Origin: an uncultured Acidobacteriaceae bacterium
GTDB lineage: Bacteria > Acidobacteriota > Terriglobia > Terriglobales > Acidobacteriaceae
Assembly (NCBI GenBank): GCA_963804075.1
Contig: CAWDPB010000095.1
Coordinates: forward strand, 17,379-81,378
DNA: 64,000 nt
Direction of reading: 5' to 3'
Position numbers and translations under genes: made by a program. The notes beneath the pieces were generated by a model, which ran no database searches, was not told the DNA's origin, and saw only the letters and a list, made by a program, of their open reading frames with translations. Positions 12,674-57,005 of the stretch are shown piece after piece. The stretch's first letter is position 1, and every line of letters starts with the position of its first letter.

Positions 12674-12808
12674 CAAGAGGTCAGAGGTTAGAGTCAGATT
12701 GCAGAAGTTACATCCGACCTCAATCCCGTTCCTTGCCTGCTCTTGATTTTCTCGATTTCGCACGGTTGCGGTTCGGGTCCTTAAACCTCCGACCTCGAAC
12801 CTCTGACC

Positions 12809-12809
<1 letters not shown>
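12674..12809. repeat. Inverted pair of heptanucleotide-periodic arrays (AGGTNNN type) filling the metK-ahcY spacer
   Basis: Right arm: TAAACCT CCGACCT CGAACCT CTGACCT (12782-12809), abutting the metK stop. Left arm: AGGTCAG AGGTTAG AGTCAGA... (12678 onward). A perfect 12-bp inverted repeat joins 12678-12689 and 12798-12809. Confidence 0.6.
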
Positions 12810-17978: not shown

Positions 17979-18542
17979 ATGATCACGATTGTTTCGGGGC
18001 TGCCGCGGTCGGGCACGTCGCTGATGATGCAAATGCTGGCGGCGGGAGGCATGATGGCGCTTTCCGATGGGGAGCGGAAGCCTGATACCGACAATCCCAA
18101 GGGGTATCTCGAATGGGAGCGGATCAAGCTGCTTCCCAAGGAACCGGGGCTGATTGCGGAGGCCGAAGGCAAAGTGGTGAAGGTGATTTCGCAGCTGATC
18201 CTGTCGCTGCCCGACGGTCACGAATACAGGATTGTGTTCATGCAGCGGCCTTTGCCGGAGGTGCTGAAGTCGCAGGAAGAAATGCTGAAGCGGCGTGGGA
18301 CTCATGAGCCGGGCGGGAATACAGCGGCCATTGAGCACGCATTCCAACGGCACTTGATTGAGGTCAACAAGTGGCTGGCAGGAAAAGCGGGTACGTCGGT
18401 TTTGCGCGTGCATTATCATCGCGTGTTGCGCGAGCCACAGGCTATGGCGGAAGGAGTGGCGGCGTTCCTGGGTGTGCCGCTGGATATTCAGGCAATGGTT
18501 GGACAGGTGGATGGCAGCTTGTATCGGAATCGTGTGAAGTAG
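17979..18542 (+). CDS. Sulfotransferase-family protein
   Basis: MITIVSGLPRSGTSLMMQML is a PAPS 5'-phosphosulfate-binding loop. The start is set at ATG 17979 because the upstream part of ORF 17892.. is the REP hairpin. Confidence 0.7.
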   Translation: MITIVSGLPRSGTSLMMQMLAAGGMMALSDGERKPDTDNPKGYLEWERIKLLPKEPGLIAEAEGKVVKVISQLILSLPDGHEYRIVFMQRPLPEVLKSQEEMLKRRGTHEPGGNTAAIEHAFQRHLIEVNKWLAGKAGTSVLRVHYHRVLREPQAMAEGVAAFLGVPLDIQAMVGQVDGSLYRNRVK

Positions 18543-19992: not shown

Positions 19993-20036
19993 TTGATAAT
20001 TTGCGTTTGTGCAACCTAGGCAAGTTCTGTTCCGAA

Positions 20037-20079
20037 CGAGATTCCTCGCCCACTCGCTTCGCTCGGGCTCGGAATGACA
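20037..20079. repeat. REP-like element (GAGATYCCTCG...GCTCRGRATGACA family) in the zwf-pgl spacer
   Basis: CGAGATTCCTCGCCCACTCGCTTCGCTCGGGCTCGGAATGACA. It is related to the copy at 52078-52135 through shared termini. Confidence 0.5.
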
Positions 20080-21643: not shown

Positions 21644-21725
21644 AAGCTGCGAGCTATGAGCCACGAGCTTCGAGCAAAATCAAAACCAAGATCCTGGCCG
21701 CTCGCGGCTCGAAGCTCGCGGTGGC
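21644..21725. repeat. Inverted pair of heptanucleotide arrays (GAGCNNN type) in the gnd-zwf spacer
   Basis: Left: AAGCTGC GAGCTAT GAGCCAC GAGCTTC GAGCAAA (21644-21678). Right: CCGCTCG CGGCTCG AAGCTCG CGGTGGC (21698-21725). A perfect 12-bp stem joins 21664-21675 and 21707-21718. Confidence 0.65.
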
Positions 21726-33978: not shown

Positions 33979-34006
33979 CTGCCAGCTTTCAGCCGTCAGC
34001 TGTCAG
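33979..34006. repeat. Solo heptanucleotide array (CNNNCAG x4)
   Basis: CTGCCAG CTTTCAG CCGTCAG CTGTCAG. Its variable triplets (TTT, CGT, TGT) are also used by the array at 37213-37240. Confidence 0.55.
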
Positions 34007-34041
34007 CCAAAAACTGGCGCACTCGCCTTCACGGAAAATCT

Positions 34042-36045: not shown

Positions 36046-37212
36046 ATGTCAACCACCGCCGCAGCCGAGGCGAACACTGCCTCTCGCGATTCTAGATTAT
36101 GGCTTGCGCTCGCGCTCACCGAAGGATTGGGAGCGTCGCGAATACGAAAACTGGTCGAGCACTTCGGCGCGGTCGCGCGCATCTTCCAGGCCAGCCTCAC
36201 CGAGTTGGAAGCGAGCGGGATGAGGGCCGTCTCCGCGCAGGCGATTGCCAGCGGAAAATCGCAAGAGCTTGCCGAGGATGAACTGACCAAAGCGATTCAA
36301 GCAAAGGCCCGTATCATTTCACTGAGCGATCCCGAATATCCGCCGCGTTTAAAAGAAATTTACGATCCGCCAGTCATTCTATTTGTGAAGGGAAGCGTTG
36401 AATTGCTGTCGCAGCCTGGAATTGCGGTGGTGGGCACTCGCCATCCGACTCCGTACGGTACCGGCATGGCTGAAAGGCTAGCCACCGACCTCGCGGCGCG
36501 TGGGTTGGCGATCATTAGCGGCCTGGCACGCGGTGTCGATACGGCATCGCATCGAGGCGCCGTCGCTGCAAAGAAAAAAACCATCGCTGTCTTGGGGACT
36601 GGCATCGACGTCGTGTATCCCAAGGAGAACACGCGCTTGGCCGAACAGATTCTCGCGCTCGGCGGCACGTTGATCTCGGAATTTCCCACGGGAACGCCTC
36701 CGACGCCGCAAAACTTTCCCATCCGCAACCGGATTATCAGCGGCATGTCAGTCGGTGTGCTCGTTGTAGAGGCGGCCGAATACAGCGGAACGCGCATCAC
36801 CTCACGCTGCGCGCTGGAACAGAACCGCGACGTTTTTGCAGTGCCCGGAAACGTCACAAATAAAAATTCTTGGGGACCAAACACGCTGATCAAGCAGGGC
36901 GCCAAGCTTGTAGCCACATGGGAGGACGTTTGGGAAGACCTGCCGGCCGAGGTTCAAATGGCGCTCAACGCGGGGCGAGATGAATCTGCCGAGCCGGCAA
37001 ACGCATCTCTATTCCCGGATGAAGTTCGGTCGCCTCACGAAAAAAAGATCCTGAAGCTGCTGAAGCCCGACCAGTCGACGCAGATCGACGAACTCATGGA
37101 AATGCTGGAAAACGAAATGTCCTCCTCCGAAATCTTCGCCGCCCTGTTCGAGCTGGAGCTGAATGGCAAGATACGCCAGCTGCCGGGGAAGAATTTTGTG
37201 AAGGCATTCTAG
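36046..37212 (+). CDS. dprA: DNA-processing protein DprA
   Basis: GIAVVGTRHPTPYGTGMAERLATDLAARGLAIISGLARGVDTASHRGAV, plus a C-terminal winged-helix-like tail. Intact. Confidence 0.92.
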   Translation: MSTTAAAEANTASRDSRLWLALALTEGLGASRIRKLVEHFGAVARIFQASLTELEASGMRAVSAQAIASGKSQELAEDELTKAIQAKARIISLSDPEYPPRLKEIYDPPVILFVKGSVELLSQPGIAVVGTRHPTPYGTGMAERLATDLAARGLAIISGLARGVDTASHRGAVAAKKKTIAVLGTGIDVVYPKENTRLAEQILALGGTLISEFPTGTPPTPQNFPIRNRIISGMSVGVLVVEAAEYSGTRITSRCALEQNRDVFAVPGNVTNKNSWGPNTLIKQGAKLVATWEDVWEDLPAEVQMALNAGRDESAEPANASLFPDEVRSPHEKKILKLLKPDQSTQIDELMEMLENEMSSSEIFAALFELELNGKIRQLPGKNFVKAF

Positions 37213-37240
37213 TTTTCAGTTGTCAGTCGTCAGTTTTCAG
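37213..37240. repeat. Upstream heptanucleotide array of the four-helix-bundle cassette
   Basis: TTTTCAG TTGTCAG TCGTCAG TTTTCAG starts right after the dprA stop codon TAG (37210-37212). A degenerate tail, TAACCG CTTTCAG TAACCC, follows. Confidence 0.75.
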
Positions 37241-37272
37241 TAACCGCTTTCAGTAACCCTGGGAGGTGAACC

Positions 37273-37632
37273 ATGCAGGATTTCCGCAGCCTTCGGGTTT
37301 GGGAGAAATCCACCATCTCACTTTGGAGATTTACTCGTGCAGCAAAGCGTTTCATCGAGAGGAAGTCTACGGCTTGACGAGCCAGATGCGCCGCCCTTCA
37401 GCATCAATCGGAATGAATATCGCTGAAGGATGCGGCAGAAAAGCCAGTGCAGAGATGGGGCGGTTTCTGCAAGGTCGCGATGGGGTCGGCCGGCAAGCTT
37501 GAATATCAGCTTCTGCTCACTCGCGACCTCAACTACATGGAGGAAGCTAAGTATGAAAGGCTTAAAACGCCAGCTATTGAGGTAAAGCGTATGCTTTCGT
37601 CCCTGATGCAGAAAGTGAGGGCGGTTAACTGA
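37273..37632 (+). CDS. Four-helix-bundle protein (23S rRNA intervening-sequence protein / Avd-like family), two frame disruptions
   Basis: GGGAGG plus ATG 37273 gives MQDFRSLRVWEKS. It continues as HHLTLEIYSCSKAFHREEVYGLTSQMRRPSASIGMNIAEGCGRK (ORF 37266..37502), then AMGSAGKLEYQLLLTRDLNYMEEAKYERLKTPAIEVKRMLSSLMQK (ORF 37447..37632). Confidence 0.8.
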
Positions 37633-37657
37633 AAACTGACAACTGACGACTGAGAAC
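37630..37657. repeat. Downstream heptanucleotide array of the cassette (inverted partner)
   Basis: TGAAAAC TGACAAC TGACGAC TGAGAAC. The first TGA is the ORF stop codon. The reverse complement matches 37212-37239 at 25 of 28 positions. Confidence 0.75.
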
Positions 37658-37719
37658 GGTTGTTGCATCGCCTGCATTCGTGCTAGCTTCAAATCCAATA
37701 CCGCCAAACTGAGGAACCA

Positions 37720-40248
37720 TTGTCCAAAGGTCTAGTCATCGTCGAATCGCCCGCTAAGGCGAAAACAATCCAGAAATATCTGGGCAAGGACTTCACGGTC
37801 GATGCCTCGTTCGGACACGTGAAAGACCTGCCCAAGAGCAGTCTCGGTGTCGATGTCGAGGACGACTTCAGCACCGAGTACGTTGTCATTCCCGGCAAGG
37901 AAAAGGTCCTCGCCAAGCTGAAGAAGCTCGCGCTCGCGGCCGACACCATCTATCTCGCGCCCGATCCGGATCGCGAAGGCGAAGCCATCGCTGCCCATCT
38001 TGCCGATGAGCTCGGGGACGAAGGCAAGAAGAAGAAAGGCTCGAAAAAGACCAAGAAGGATGATGGCGATGGCGATCGCATCCGCCGCGTCACCTTCAAC
38101 GAAATTACACAGCGCGCGGTTAAGGCGGCCTTCGAGCATCCACGCGACATCGACCGTAACCTCGTCGATGCGCAGCAGGCTCGGCGTGTGCTCGATCGGC
38201 TGGTCGGATACCAGGTGTCTCCGCTTCTGTGGGACAAAGTGCGCCGCGGTCTTTCTGCCGGACGTGTGCAAACTGTCGCCTTGCGCTTGATCGTCGACCG
38301 CGAACGTGAAATTAAGGCGTTCGAGAAGAAAGAATATTGGACGATTGACGCCAATCTCACTGGCAGCAAGCCGCCTGCATTCGATGCCCGCTTCGTCGGT
38401 CGAGGCGATGAGAGGGTCGAAGTCACGAACGGTGAGGACGCCGAGAAAATCCGCCTGGCGCTCGAAAATGCCGACTGGCAGGTTCGTTCGGTTGAAAAGA
38501 AAGAGCGTCGCCGCAACGCGACTCCTCCATTTACCACCAGCAAGCTCCAGCAGGATTCCTCGCGCAAGCTGCGTTTCAGCGTGAAGCGCACTATGATGAT
38601 CGCGCAGCGCCTGTATGAAGGCGTCGAGCTCGGCGAAGAAGGCCTGGTCGGCCTGATCACGTACATGCGTACCGATTCCACCCGCGTGGCGCCCGAGGCC
38701 ATCGCCGAGGTGCGCGAATACATCACCAGCGAATATGGCGCCCAGTACCTGCCGCAGTCTCCCAACACATATAAGGAGAAGAAGGAAGCGCAGGCCGCGC
38801 ACGAGGCCATCCGTCCGACCTCCGCGATGCGTCATCCCGATCAGGTCAAACAGTATCTGCAGGAAGACGAATTCAAGGTCTACAAGCTTATCTGGCAGCG
38901 CTTCATCGCCTCGCAGATGAATCCTGCGGTCTTCGATCAGACGACGGTGGATATCGACGCGAAGTCGGCCAACGAGACTTTCTGGTTCCGCGTGACCGGT
39001 TCGGTCATGAAGTTCGACGGCTTCCTTAAAGTCTATGAGGAGTCGAAAGACGCAAAGGACGACGAAGACGAGGAGCTGAAACATAAACTCCCCGCTCTCG
39101 AAGCGGGACAGAAACTCACGCTGAAGTCGCTGAATCCCGAGCAGCATTTCACCGAGCCACCTCCCCGCTACAACGAAGCTTCGCTGGTGAAAGAGCTGGA
39201 AGAGCGCGGCATTGGCCGCCCGTCCACCTATGCGACGATTCTAAGCACAATTCAGGAGCGCCAGTACGCCCAGAAAATCGGTGGCAAATTTACTCCGACC
39301 GAAATTGGTCTGGTTGTTACCGACTTGCTGGTCGAAAACTTCAAGGACATTTTCGACTTCCAGTACACGGCGAAGTTGGAAGAAGAACTCGACGAGATCG
39401 AAGAAGGCAAAGAAAAATGGACCGACGCGCTCGCCGAGTTCTATAAGAAGTTCGCCAAGGATCTCAAATACGCTGAGAAGCACATGGAAAACATCAAGCG
39501 TATGGAGAAGCCCACGGACGAGAAGTGCGAGCGCTGCGGCGCACCCCTCGTCATCAAATGGGGCAAGCACGGCTCGTTTTACGCTTGCAGTACCTACGAC
39601 AAAGAGAATCCTGAGAGTTGCACCTTCACCAAGGAAAACCCGATCAATCTGCCGGATCTCGATTCGGCGGACATGCAGGAGACCGCGCAGGAAGAATATT
39701 GCGAAAACTGCGGCCGGGTCATGGTCCTCAAGCGCGGACGCTTCGGGCAGTTTATGGCCTGCACCGGCTATCCCGATTGCAAGACCACGCGTCGGCTCGA
39801 TCAGGGCAAGAAGGTTCCAGATATTCCGCTCGACGAAACCTGCCCGTTGTGCAAGCGCAATCTGATTCTGCGCCATGGCCGTTACGGGGAATTCACTTCG
39901 TGCAGCGGCTATCCCGATTGCAAATACGTGAAACAGAATTTCATCGGCGTAAAGTGCCCCTCTGCAAAGACGGCGAACTGGTCGAAAAGCGCGCACGCAA
40001 GGGCAACACGTTCTAGGATGCTCAAATTATCCCAAGTGCAAGTTCACGTCCGCCACGAAGCCGCTCGCGGAGAAGTGTCCGTCTGCGGACATGAGTACCT
40101 TGTCGAGCGCATGCGCAAGGAAGGAACTGTCATCGCATGCCCTGAGAAGGTATGCGACGCACGAGCGCGCGGTGGAAGGCTCGGCGGAAGTAGCCGGAAA
40201 ATCCGTCTGAGATGGGCGCAAGGTCTGCACGAGTTCCAAGCGTACTGA
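37720..40248 (+). CDS. topA: DNA topoisomerase I, at least three clustered frame disruptions in the zinc-finger tail
   Basis: TTG start followed by LVIVESPAKAKTIQKYLGKDFTVDASFGHVKDLP (Toprim). The catalytic core is intact. C-terminal CxxC zinc ribbons follow. Between ~39955 and 40090 the sequence KCPLCKDGELVEKRARKGNTF / GCSNYPKCKFTSATKPLAEKCPS / CGHEYLVERM is spread over three frames. The true stop is uncertain (40210 or 40248). Confidence 0.93.
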   Translation: MSKGLVIVESPAKAKTIQKYLGKDFTVDASFGHVKDLPKSSLGVDVEDDFSTEYVVIPGKEKVLAKLKKLALAADTIYLAPDPDREGEAIAAHLADELGDEGKKKKGSKKTKKDDGDGDRIRRVTFNEITQRAVKAAFEHPRDIDRNLVDAQQARRVLDRLVGYQVSPLLWDKVRRGLSAGRVQTVALRLIVDREREIKAFEKKEYWTIDANLTGSKPPAFDARFVGRGDERVEVTNGEDAEKIRLALENADWQVRSVEKKERRRNATPPFTTSKLQQDSSRKLRFSVKRTMMIAQRLYEGVELGEEGLVGLITYMRTDSTRVAPEAIAEVREYITSEYGAQYLPQSPNTYKEKKEAQAAHEAIRPTSAMRHPDQVKQYLQEDEFKVYKLIWQRFIASQMNPAVFDQTTVDIDAKSANETFWFRVTGSVMKFDGFLKVYEESKDAKDDEDEELKHKLPALEAGQKLTLKSLNPEQHFTEPPPRYNEASLVKELEERGIGRPSTYATILSTIQERQYAQKIGGKFTPTEIGLVVTDLLVENFKDIFDFQYTAKLEEELDEIEEGKEKWTDALAEFYKKFAKDLKYAEKHMENIKRMEKPTDEKCERCGAPLVIKWGKHGSFYACSTYDKENPESCTFTKENPINLPDLDSADMQETAQEEYCENCGRVMVLKRGRFGQFMACTGYPDCKTTRRLDQGKKVPDIPLDETCPLCKRNLILRHGRYGEFTSCSGYPDCKYVKQNFIGVKCPSAKTANWSKSAHARATRSRMLKLSQVQVHVRHEAARGEVSVCGHEYLVERMRKEGTVIACPEKVCDARARGGRLGGSSRKIRLRWAQGLHEFQAY

Positions 40249-41733: not shown

Positions 41734-41805
41734 ACGCAAAACATTGAGGCAGGCTTAATCAAGCCCGACCCGGAAAAATTGAAATTTTCATACCGAAAGA
41801 AAACC

Positions 41806-41847
41806 CAAAGGCGAGAGGCGAGAGGCGAAAGCCCAGAGCCGAAATTC
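41806..41847. repeat. Solo heptanucleotide array (GARAGNC type) abutting the mqnD-like start codon
   Basis: CAAAGGC GAGAGGC GAGAGGC GAAAGCC CAGAGCC GAAATTC, then AAATT and ATG 41853. Confidence 0.6.
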
Positions 41848-53249: not shown

Positions 53250-53431
53250 AAGCTATGAGCTATGAGCCTTGAGCTATGAGCAAGCAAAAGCAACGGTAAC
53301 AACAGCAACAACAGCAACAACAACAACAGCAACAACAACAGCAGCAACAACAGCAATGGCTAAACGGCCTTGCGCGGTGCGACTTTCATTCGCATCGGCT
53401 GAACTTGTTTCTCGTGGCTCATAGCTCGTAG
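53250..53431. repeat. Inverted heptanucleotide arrays (GAGCNNN type) enclosing a 57-nt (AAC/AGC) trinucleotide tract
   Basis: Left: AAGCTAT GAGCTAT GAGCCTT GAGCTAT GAGCAAG (53250-53284). Right: CTCGTGG CTCATAG CTCGTAG (53411-53431), abutting the nifJ stop codon. The core is 19 triplets at 53298-53354. Confidence 0.7.

Positions 53432-57005
<3,574 letters not shown>

Follow-up and report, generated by a model that had tools for sequence, protein, structure and literature searches.

A decayed four-helix-bundle gene between mirrored heptamer arrays in a dprA–topA spacer of Acidobacteriaceae and its likeness to rRNA intervening sequences

INTRODUCTION

rRNA intervening sequences (IVSs) have been known since about 1990. 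The present study describes an element of similar build in the spacer between dprA and topA, found in 64,000 nt of DNA from an uncultured Acidobacteriaceae bacterium (GenBank assembly GCA_963804075.1, contig CAWDPB010000095.1, positions 17,379 to 81,378 of the forward strand; the whole stretch is hereafter called the window). In this element, a decayed gene for a four-helix-bundle (4HB) protein is enclosed by mirrored arrays of tandem heptamers. Genes between short inverted repeats are also known from the REPtron, in which a RAYT gene (REP-associated tyrosine transposase; Y1, IS200/IS605-like) is flanked by inverted repetitive extragenic palindromes (REPs), while REP hairpins without an open reading frame (ORF) occur in intergenic spacers. 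Avd, a pentameric protein of the same superfamily as the 4HB proteins, binds nucleic acid and has been described as an accessory protein of reverse transcription in diversity-generating retroelements (DGRs).

The 23S rRNA of Coxiella burnetii contains an IVS of 428 nt with a 28-bp terminal stem and a decaying ORF for S23p (PF05635) (PMC4990558). Three to four tandem GACAGAT heptamers precede the start of the S23p ORF, their copy number varies among strains, and cuts by RNase III were mapped within the stem (PMC4990558). [quoted passage not shown]

Heptamer repeats have also been described in their own right. In Beggiatoaceae, Cyanobacteria, and Bacteroidetes, direct TAACTGA repeats that have found no explanation lie upstream of start codons (PMC4679880). 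GGGAATC repeats form 70–75 convergent inverted pairs in Xanthomonas, and heptamer repeats in general are over-represented in bacteria, which was ascribed to slippage (PMC4692102). One four-unit GGGAATC array of 28 nt lies between bccP (XCC0517) and XCC0516 and overlaps the start of XCC0516, which encodes the crystallised 4HB protein (PMC4692102, supplementary table). The PDB entries 2GSC (XCC0516) and 2RLD contain five chains each. Furthermore, two genes annotated as 'four helix bundle protein' were among the 24 strain-unique genes of Arthrospira sp. O9.13F (PMC8700078), which fits the 4HB family as variable, accessory DNA.

RESULTS

The dprA–topA spacer of the window

The element in the window shares its cassette architecture with the ORF-bearing rRNA IVSs and is placed in an mRNA spacer. 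It consists of two inverted heptamer arrays (arms) around a leader, a Shine-Dalgarno (SD)-like sequence, and a 4HB gene. The features of the locus are as follows (TRF, Tandem Repeats Finder; MFE, minimum free energy structure):

36046–37212, + strand: dprA, from the ORF listing, with PF02481/PF17782 homologues (best match 90%); stop codon TAG at 37210–37212
37212–37241, + strand: 5' arm, about four type A heptamers (TTTTCAG TTGTCAG TCGTCAG TTTTCAG; unit AGYTNTC), from TRF, inverted repeat, and MFE pairing
37235–37258, + strand: leader with an 11-nt duplication (TTTCAGTAACC twice) that is not present in orthologues
37261–37266, + strand: SD-like GGGAGG at the foot of the stem on its inner side, 6 nt before ATG 37273
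37273–37632, + strand: 4HB gene (PF05635/TIGR02436), a pseudogene; original stop codon TGA at 37630–37632, within the 3' arm
37628–37657, + strand: 3' arm, mirror array (ACTGAAA ACTGACA ACTGACG ACTGAGA AC), from TRF, inverted repeat, and MFE pairing
37676–37692, + strand: conserved box ATTCGTGCTAGCTTCAA, some 30 nt before the start of topA, resembling an extended −10 element (TGcTAGCTT)
37720–40248, + strand: topA (Toprim, Topoisom_bac, Zn ribbons), the downstream neighbour, from the ORF listing and Pfam on orthologous loci

The dprA stop codon abuts and overlaps the first heptamer and is the left edge of the segment that is swapped among relatives. Repeats of period 7 with 4.4 copies were called by TRF at 37211–37241 and at 37627–37657, and the repeat finder returned the two arms as inverted copies of 30 nt, 90% complementary and 386 nt apart. 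When the arms are paired, 27 of the 30 positions are Watson-Crick, two are G-T, and one is A-C. The pattern TCAGN3TCAGN3TCAG occurs five times in the window, compared to an expected 0.01. Folding of the RNA from 37205 to 37665 gave −184.9 kcal/mol versus −145.6 ± 6.9 kcal/mol for dinucleotide shuffles (z = −5.7), and none of 100 shuffles was as good. In the MFE, the arms are paired in a closing stem of about 45 bp, which is extended by pairing of the leader TAACCGC with GCGGTTA at 37620–37626. The leader itself holds a 16-nt insertion relative to orthologues, made by the duplication of the 11-nt TTTCAGTAACC, and the orthologues have GGAGG at the position equivalent to the SD of the window. An Rfam search found no rRNA or other family anywhere in the window; the cassette lies in the dprA–topA spacer and not inside an rRNA gene. 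No terminator-like site was called on the + strand between 36900 and 37900.

This layout had been proposed in a first-pass annotation made from the letters of the window, and most of it stood. The four phased heptamers directly after the dprA TAG are borne out by the sequence and by TRF, and the positions of the SD, of ATG 37273, and of TGA 37630 as the opening triplet of the mirror array were confirmed. The mirror complementarity claimed for the arrays amounts to 27 of 30 positions over 37212–37241 and 37628–37657, and the assignment of the enclosed gene to the 23S IVS-protein family agrees with the matches to PF05635 and TIGR02436. A stem closing a loop around exactly one ORF had also been put forward: the 30-nt arms, the 386-nt loop, and the single 4HB gene are there, whereas the ORF is broken by two 1-nt indels. 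Similarly, the suggestion that the TGA-containing heptamers place stop codons in all three frames holds for the heptamer type of the window and is not general to the family.

The enclosed gene

The frame-repaired 4HB sequence matched PF05635 with E = 7.9e-34 and 116.5 bits (cut-off 33.8), and the 4HB sequence of the window scored 111 bits against TIGR02436 (cut-off 24). It is the only PF05635/TIGR02436 gene in the 64,000 nt, and the profile search returned PF05635 without a transposase domain. The reading frame from ATG 37273 ends at TGA 37375–37377 after 34 codons, and the full-length PF05635 match spans three frame segments, equivalent to two frame changes. Compared to the orthologues, the gene has lost one base between 37310 and 37311 and gained a G at 37473/37474. 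Intact orthologues have 119 amino acids, with identities of 70–82%. Three other public assemblies encode an identical DprA; two of them carry the identical cassette with both indels and the third has the first indel only. As the indels are present in independent assemblies, they are real mutations and not errors of one assembly, and the gene of the window is a true pseudogene.

The protein was also considered as a candidate Avd. It scored 16.9 bits against bAvd (PF22296; cut-off 40), and its neighbours are dprA and topA only; this identity was rejected. Profiles for anti-phage defence (PADLOC) and phage proteins (PHROGs) gave no match for the 4HB protein.

The same site in relatives

With the repaired 4HB protein of the window as query, a scan of genomes returned 58 loci. 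Fifty-three of these (54 with the window) are the orthologous dprA–4HB–topA locus of other Terriglobales/Acidobacteriaceae species. Complementary heptamer arms were present at all 54 orthologous loci, with stems of 17–47 nt (median 29.5 nt). The ORF is intact (119 codons) at about 42 of them and interrupted by stop codons or frameshifts at about 12. Intact type-A ORFs are under strong purifying selection, with a median ratio of nonsynonymous to synonymous substitution rates (dN/dS) of 0.064 at dS 1.4.

As this first sample is biased to cassettes like that of the window, a metagenome scan was anchored on the DprA C-terminus instead, and 72 complete dprA–topA spacers were obtained. Cassette arms were found in 65 of the 72, accompanied by a full-length 4HB gene in 45 spacers, by a broken or internally deleted one in 17, and by no detectable gene in three. 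One further spacer retained one arm and the last third of the 4HB gene, while six had neither arms nor 4HB gene, among these L109, L140, and L141. The arms in this sample have a median length of 3.9 heptads. Locus L077, with arms and no gene, folds as a clean hairpin whose loop has 74 nt (z = −7.1). The empty spacer L109 has 109 nt, with a plain GC hairpin and a T run after it, and L140 and L141 retain a two-unit arm stub; these two and L150 are examples of one-arm remnants at this site. Thus, every stage of decay exists at dprA–topA, from frameshifts, internal deletions, ORF-less hairpins, and stubs down to the empty site. At this site, solo hairpins visibly derive from full cassettes through deletion.

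Two other spacers at this site were of a different kind. In L101, the spacer of 1072 nt holds an unrelated 1-kb insert with its own ORFs and without heptamer arms or 4HB gene. In L156 (11293–11722), a further arm type with CGAGACT units was found.

Cassette types and their replacement

At least four cassette types can be distinguished by the heptamer unit (counts in brackets), namely A with AGYTNTC (26), B with AGCTNCG (11), C with RGCTNTT (15), and D with RGCTNCT (13). The arms of different types are not column-homologous; hence, each arm was compared to its own partner and to the arms of other loci. Mean match scores were 19.6 for the own partner, 17.5 for a same-type partner, 8.4 for an other-type partner, and 6.9 for shuffled arms (p = 1.6e-33). 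The type follows the enclosed protein: the nearest 4HB protein neighbour is of the same heptamer type in 42 of 43 cases, and 4HB protein identity is 73% within types and 54% between types. For dprA, the nearest neighbour was of the same type in 16 of 48 cases, versus 24% by chance, under an earlier typing that left many type-A loci unassigned.

A pairwise test of the flanks does not depend on type assignment. Pairs of loci with 96–98% identical 600-nt flanks on both sides have spacers that are 58–62% identical. Judged by DprA, the nearest relative of the window (90%) carries a type-B cassette versus type A in the window. In such swap pairs, identity is lost at the dprA stop codon and regained at the conserved box ATTCGTGCTAGC or, with type B, only at the ribosome-binding site of topA. 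No target-site duplication was visible at the swap boundaries. The type is decoupled from the flanks and swaps occur in near-identical backgrounds; at this fixed site, arms and gene therefore act together as a single replaceable unit. This discrete unit is replaced, decays, and is lost.

The box ATTCGTGCTAGCTTCAA is the right edge of most of these swaps and is kept in nearly all dprA–topA spacers, empty ones included; type-B spacers have the variant CATGTTAGTTTCGAG. It may be a promoter element, and a consensus promoter scan gave no call there. Where type-A spacers have the AGCT form, their last heptamer (CTGACA) is found 18 nt upstream of the box, at the −35 spot. A sigma-70-like promoter match (CTGACG-16-TAGAAT) was found on the − strand of the window at 37233–37206, within the 5' arm and pointing back into dprA. 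As heptamers of the CTGACA kind resemble −35 boxes, the arrays may create promoters, spurious or real.

Bracketed 4HB genes in other contexts

The remaining five loci of the genome scan are not orthologous to the dprA–topA locus. They showed inverted heptamers around a 4HB gene in other gene contexts and came from two Nitrospira bins, a Proteobacteria-labelled bin, a Thermoanaerobaculia bin, and the 'archaeon UBA543'. The locus of the Proteobacteria-labelled bin is near-identical to one of the Nitrospira loci, and of the Thermoanaerobaculia locus just the 3' side lies on the contig. Viral contigs yielded more cases. In a first scan, 12 loci of the close 4HB family were found, of which 10 exceeded the threshold for a stem, and mirrored arrays were visible by eye in every one of the 12; in a second scan, complementary arrays, nearly all of period 7, surrounded 18 of 21 such loci. 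Outside dprA–topA, about 30 bracketed 4HB loci are known in total from these scans. By contrast with the close family, eight distant 4HB matches on viral contigs (≤36% identity) had no stem above background, and of 486 control ORFs (≥90 codons, same DNA), those of the 4HB cassettes themselves passed the bracket test and no others did, with 470 control ORFs unbracketed.

The units at these sites are mutually unrelated (GGCNNTC, GTAGTCT, GGAGTCT, TAGGCTG, AGGCTTC, GGCTTTA, CGTTACA, GGAAGAA, and others). What is conserved is the period of 7, the number of about four units, and the inverted symmetry, not the sequence itself. Bracketing by heptamers is general in the core PF05635 family. Where copies from other phyla have type-A-like arms, their proteins are just slightly closer to those of type A, in a sample that is biased by how it was found. 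Both orientations of the 4HB gene relative to its neighbours occur outside the dprA site: neighbours were co-directional in 13 of 23 classifiable loci and, in nine of these 13, antisense to the 4HB gene, according to a longest-ORF heuristic that is noisy in GC-rich DNA. Pfam calls showed no reverse transcriptase adjoining any cassette, and Pfam calls on the neighbours gave no transposase or recombinase in or adjoining any cassette.

On L067, a phage-like contig with tail- and head-type ORFs, GGCNNTC arrays lie around a 4HB gene that is antisense to the structural genes, and a further single array is located between two structural genes (857–887, 1402–1437, and 1893–1923).

Hairpins and arrays without a gene

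Heptamer arrays without a 4HB gene were found at further positions of the window:

12676–12809, − strand: hairpin with unit AGAGGTC in the metK–ahcY spacer; arms 12676–12698 and 12786–12809; fold z = −2.9
21645–21721, − strand: type B hairpin (AGCTNCG) in the gnd–zwf spacer; arms 21645–21675 and 21700–21721; loop of about 24 nt; fold z = −3.2
33989–34008, no strand assigned: single type-A-like array TCAGCCG TCAGCTG TCAGCC with no inverted partner, some 55 nt upstream of a start codon on the minus strand
53251–53433, − strand: hairpin with AGCTATG/AGCTACG between genes for a thiamine pyrophosphate (TPP) enzyme and a dihydroorotate dehydrogenase (DHODH)-like protein; arms 53251–53281 and 53411–53433

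The hairpins at 12.7, 21.7, and 53.3 kb all lie between co-directional genes, and their arms adjoin the stop codon of the gene upstream and the ribosome-binding site of the gene downstream. The type-B unit is present in the 21.7-kb and 53.3-kb hairpins. Folding is significantly better than in shuffles for the hairpins at 12.7 and 21.7 kb. The arms of the 53.3-kb hairpin pair in the MFE, with an overall z of −0.8 that is not significant; its loop contains an (AAC/AGC)n microsatellite at 53279–53356 (TRF score 105). No remains of a 4HB gene were detected in the loops of the ORF-less hairpins of the window, even at E ≤ 10. The single array at 33989–34008 may be a one-arm remnant. Another array without inverted partner, AGGCGAG three times followed by AGCCCAG AGCCGA, is a direct array at 41799–41844, about 10 nt upstream of ATG 41855, and resembles the heptamer repeats upstream of start codons in Beggiatoa.

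The solo hairpins are as polymorphic as the full cassettes. At the gnd–zwf site, two relatives have short empty spacers and the closest relative has a hairpin of a different heptamer (TCAATGA); no full cassette was seen at this site in the 19 places examined through Zwf look-ups, which had either an empty spacer or a different hairpin. Between zwf and pgl, two relatives (L161 and L177) have AT-rich heptamer hairpins, of which there are none in the window. The zwf–pgl spacer of the window (about 20000–20060, − strand) contains a palindromic REP-like element, GTCATTCCGAGCCCGAGCGAAGCGAGTGGGCGAGGAATC, and a related one, GTCATCCTGAGCGGAGCAAG, is present in L171 (3050–3110). In L157, a lone type-C array (TTAGCTC TTAGCTT TTGGCTT TTGGCTT) was found at 18366–18393, in another spacer 7 kb downstream of topA.

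DISCUSSION

The element is probably a decayed, selfish cassette of the IVS type, built like the 23S IVS of Coxiella and residing in an operon spacer between dprA and topA. The first-pass annotation had likened it to rRNA IVSs, aptly so, as the Coxiella 23S IVS has a stem, heptamers, a PF05635 ORF, and a loop of about 400 nt (PMC4990558). It had further expected a family with full and solo members, a stem more stable than shuffled controls, arrays at other 4HB loci, and presence/absence among relatives, and all of these that could be checked came out in favour of the IVS-like idea. The stability of the stem far exceeds that of shuffled controls (z = −5.7). Arrays accompany the 54 orthologous loci, 65 of the 72 DprA-anchored spacers, and about 30 loci elsewhere, while controls lack them, and replacement, solo hairpins, remnants, and an empty spacer occur alongside full cassettes at dprA–topA. 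The ORF-less arrays listed for the window were recovered as inverted pairs at 12.7, 21.7, and 53.3 kb and as single arrays at 34.0 and 41.8 kb. The interpretation given in the annotation was largely right, the broken ORF excepted. It knew of no description of such cassettes; in the papers found, this architecture is described solely for an IVS within an rRNA gene. In the full-text literature searched, no paper links PF05635 genes in general to flanking inverted heptamers and none treats PF05635 genes as swappable operon-spacer cassettes, so that no general account was found; the heptamers of the Coxiella IVS and heptamer repeats generally had already been described, and the connection between them appears undescribed.

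In any transcript that crosses the spacer, the arms would pair to a duplex of 30–45 bp with the insert looped out, which would bring the dprA stop codon beside the topA leader. Such a duplex is the kind of substrate that RNase III cuts, and cleavage here is predicted by analogy to Coxiella and from the stem length of about 28–45 bp. A cut without re-ligation would be harmless between two cistrons, as it is in an rRNA helix, and the insert would be tolerated there. With SD and ORF inside the loop, the released loop RNA would still be translatable, its ends being paired. Homologous recombination via the conserved flanking genes would be the simplest account of the spread of the cassette, as suggested by the swap boundaries.

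Several points weigh against this reading. Strong purifying selection on the protein and retention in most relatives would also be expected of a useful host gene. Recombination through the flanks is suggested by the breakpoints alone, and a dedicated mobility mechanism may exist. The period of 7 has no account in the model of an IVS cassette, and transcription and RNase III cleavage at this locus are predictions. In addition, the stems show no enrichment of G-U over A-C in a wobble test that treats all mismatches alike (51 versus 38 in genome loci and 106 versus 86 in all loci, p = 0.17), so that the sequences cannot tell an RNA-level from a DNA-level stem. In the type A set, the two arms covary at the first variable position of the heptad (115 units with C:G, 54 with T:A, seven mismatches), while the second variable position (N) pairs in just 43%. 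The complementarity could thus be held at the DNA level, e.g., by templated correction between the arms, and not by selection on RNA.

A mobile element acting at the level of DNA would fit the equality of G-U and A-C. Here the arrays would be terminal inverted repeats or recombination sites (of a foldback, REP-like, or MITE-like kind, i.e., like miniature inverted-repeat transposable elements) for an enzyme whose gene lies elsewhere; the 4HB gene would serve as cargo or as an accessory factor, and the ORF-less hairpins would be non-autonomous derivatives. Cassettes are indeed swapped as units between near-identical backgrounds, and one type recurs at different sites: type B at dprA–topA (L073 and L079) and, in the window, at gnd–zwf and 53.3 kb, type C as a solo array in L157, and type A as a solo array at 34.0 kb. 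Hairpins at gnd–zwf and zwf–pgl also differ or are absent in close relatives. We nevertheless consider such an element unlikely. There is no transposase or recombinase in or beside any cassette, no target-site duplication is visible at the boundaries, and the whole spacer is swapped up to conserved coding or leader sequence, as in plain homologous recombination. The great diversity of the units is, moreover, hard to fit with one recognising enzyme. A specific role of the 4HB protein itself, which could hold alongside the IVS-cassette explanation, is that a pentamer binds the arrays with about one heptad per subunit, for autoregulation or for packaging of RNA or DNA. The five-chain crystals (2GSC and 2RLD) and the toroid cited in PMC4990558 agree with this, as do the arm lengths (median 3.9 heptads here; 28 nt in Coxiella and Xanthomonas), the coupling of unit type and protein clade (42/43), and the reported part of the related Avd as an accessory protein of DGR reverse transcription. 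That coupling, however, is equally explained by co-inheritance, and the Nitrospira and other copies with type-A-like arms are just marginally closer to type-A proteins in a biased test. Several ORF-less hairpin types persist in the window, whose sole 4HB gene is broken, and binding is only predicted; on the whole, a binding-site function seems quite improbable.

The arrays might instead belong to the ordinary equipment of the host, with the hairpin as terminator, insulator, or stabiliser, the 4HB gene as a normal small gene, and the heptamers produced by slippage plus templated correction of the palindrome. An empty spacer with a plain GC hairpin and T run (L109), ORF-less hairpins that abut upstream stop and downstream SD in several operon spacers, the dN/dS of 0.06, and the frequency of heptamer repeats in bacteria, which were ascribed to slippage (PMC4692102), would all suit a host feature. 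This explanation is the one least compatible with the decoupling of cassette and flanks, which is unlike vertical evolution in place: 4HB lineages at one site differ by 46% of their amino acids, whereas the flanks differ by 2–4%. Furthermore, no terminator-like site was called at the arms, 4HB genes of unrelated contexts and phyla, in either orientation, have the same bracket, and about a quarter of the copies are broken. We therefore regard a plain host feature as very unlikely.

A broader proposal, which we offer tentatively and hold to be possible though on balance doubtful, is that PF05635 genes with mirrored heptamer arrays are one widespread, unrecognised class of selfish hairpin elements, of which rRNA IVSs would be the special case noticed first. 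Members would colonise sites at which a cut in the RNA needs no re-ligation (rRNA helices, operon spacers, and phage gene clusters) and spread via the flanks or with the aid of a heptad-reading pentamer, and their ORF-less remains would make up much of the STRR (short tandemly repeated repetitive), TAACTGA, and GGGAATC repeats. The data tie three separately studied puzzles into one element, namely the rRNA IVSs, the function of PF05635/TIGR02436 proteins, and the intergenic heptamer repeats of cyanobacteria, Xanthomonas, and Beggiatoa. The dprA–topA site offers a natural series in near-identical backgrounds (four intact types, broken, ORF-less, and empty), which makes the cutting of the arms by RNase III, the binding of heptads by the protein, and the agent that moves the cassette testable. 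For annotation, many of the short 'hypothetical' genes and operon-spacer hairpins in soil Acidobacteria probably represent this element or what is left of it.

Among the known systems, the REPtron shares a gene bracketed by inverted short repeats and scattered ORF-less hairpin copies. It differs in its Y1 transposase, in place of which the cassette encodes a four-helix bundle without known catalytic activity, and REPs have one conserved palindrome per genome versus tandem heptamers with a free unit sequence. With Avd (bAvd, PF22296), the enclosed protein shares the four-helix-bundle fold. The heptamer repeats (STRR of Calothrix, TAACTGA, and GGGAATC) likewise have two to six tandem units, are intergenic and often next to start codons, and vary in length and sequence between close relatives; TAACTGA is even the first unit of the 3' arm in the window. 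The papers on TAACTGA and GGGAATC treat these repeats as stand-alone features (G-quadruplexes or sites of translational regulators) without a link to 4HB genes (PMC4679880, PMC4692102), whereas the arrays described here are complementary pairs around a gene or its remains.

The closest resemblance is to the ORF-bearing rRNA IVSs. These sit in helix 25 or 45 of 23S rRNA, whereas the cassette of the window occupies an mRNA intercistronic spacer. In the Coxiella IVS, the SD is cut off and the protein was not detected, whereas here the loop holds a good SD and the protein is under strong purifying selection in most relatives. The RNase III cuts of Coxiella were mapped; those in the cassette of the window are predicted. 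Several lineages alternate at one site at dprA–topA, which is unreported for rRNA IVSs. Common to the window cassette and the Coxiella IVS are tandem heptamers in the 5' arm and decay of the ORF in some lineages, and the ORF-bearing rRNA IVSs share with it the terminal inverted repeats with a stem of about 28 bp, a single PF05635 gene in a loop of about 400 nt, and the placement of this ORF on the sense strand within the host transcript.

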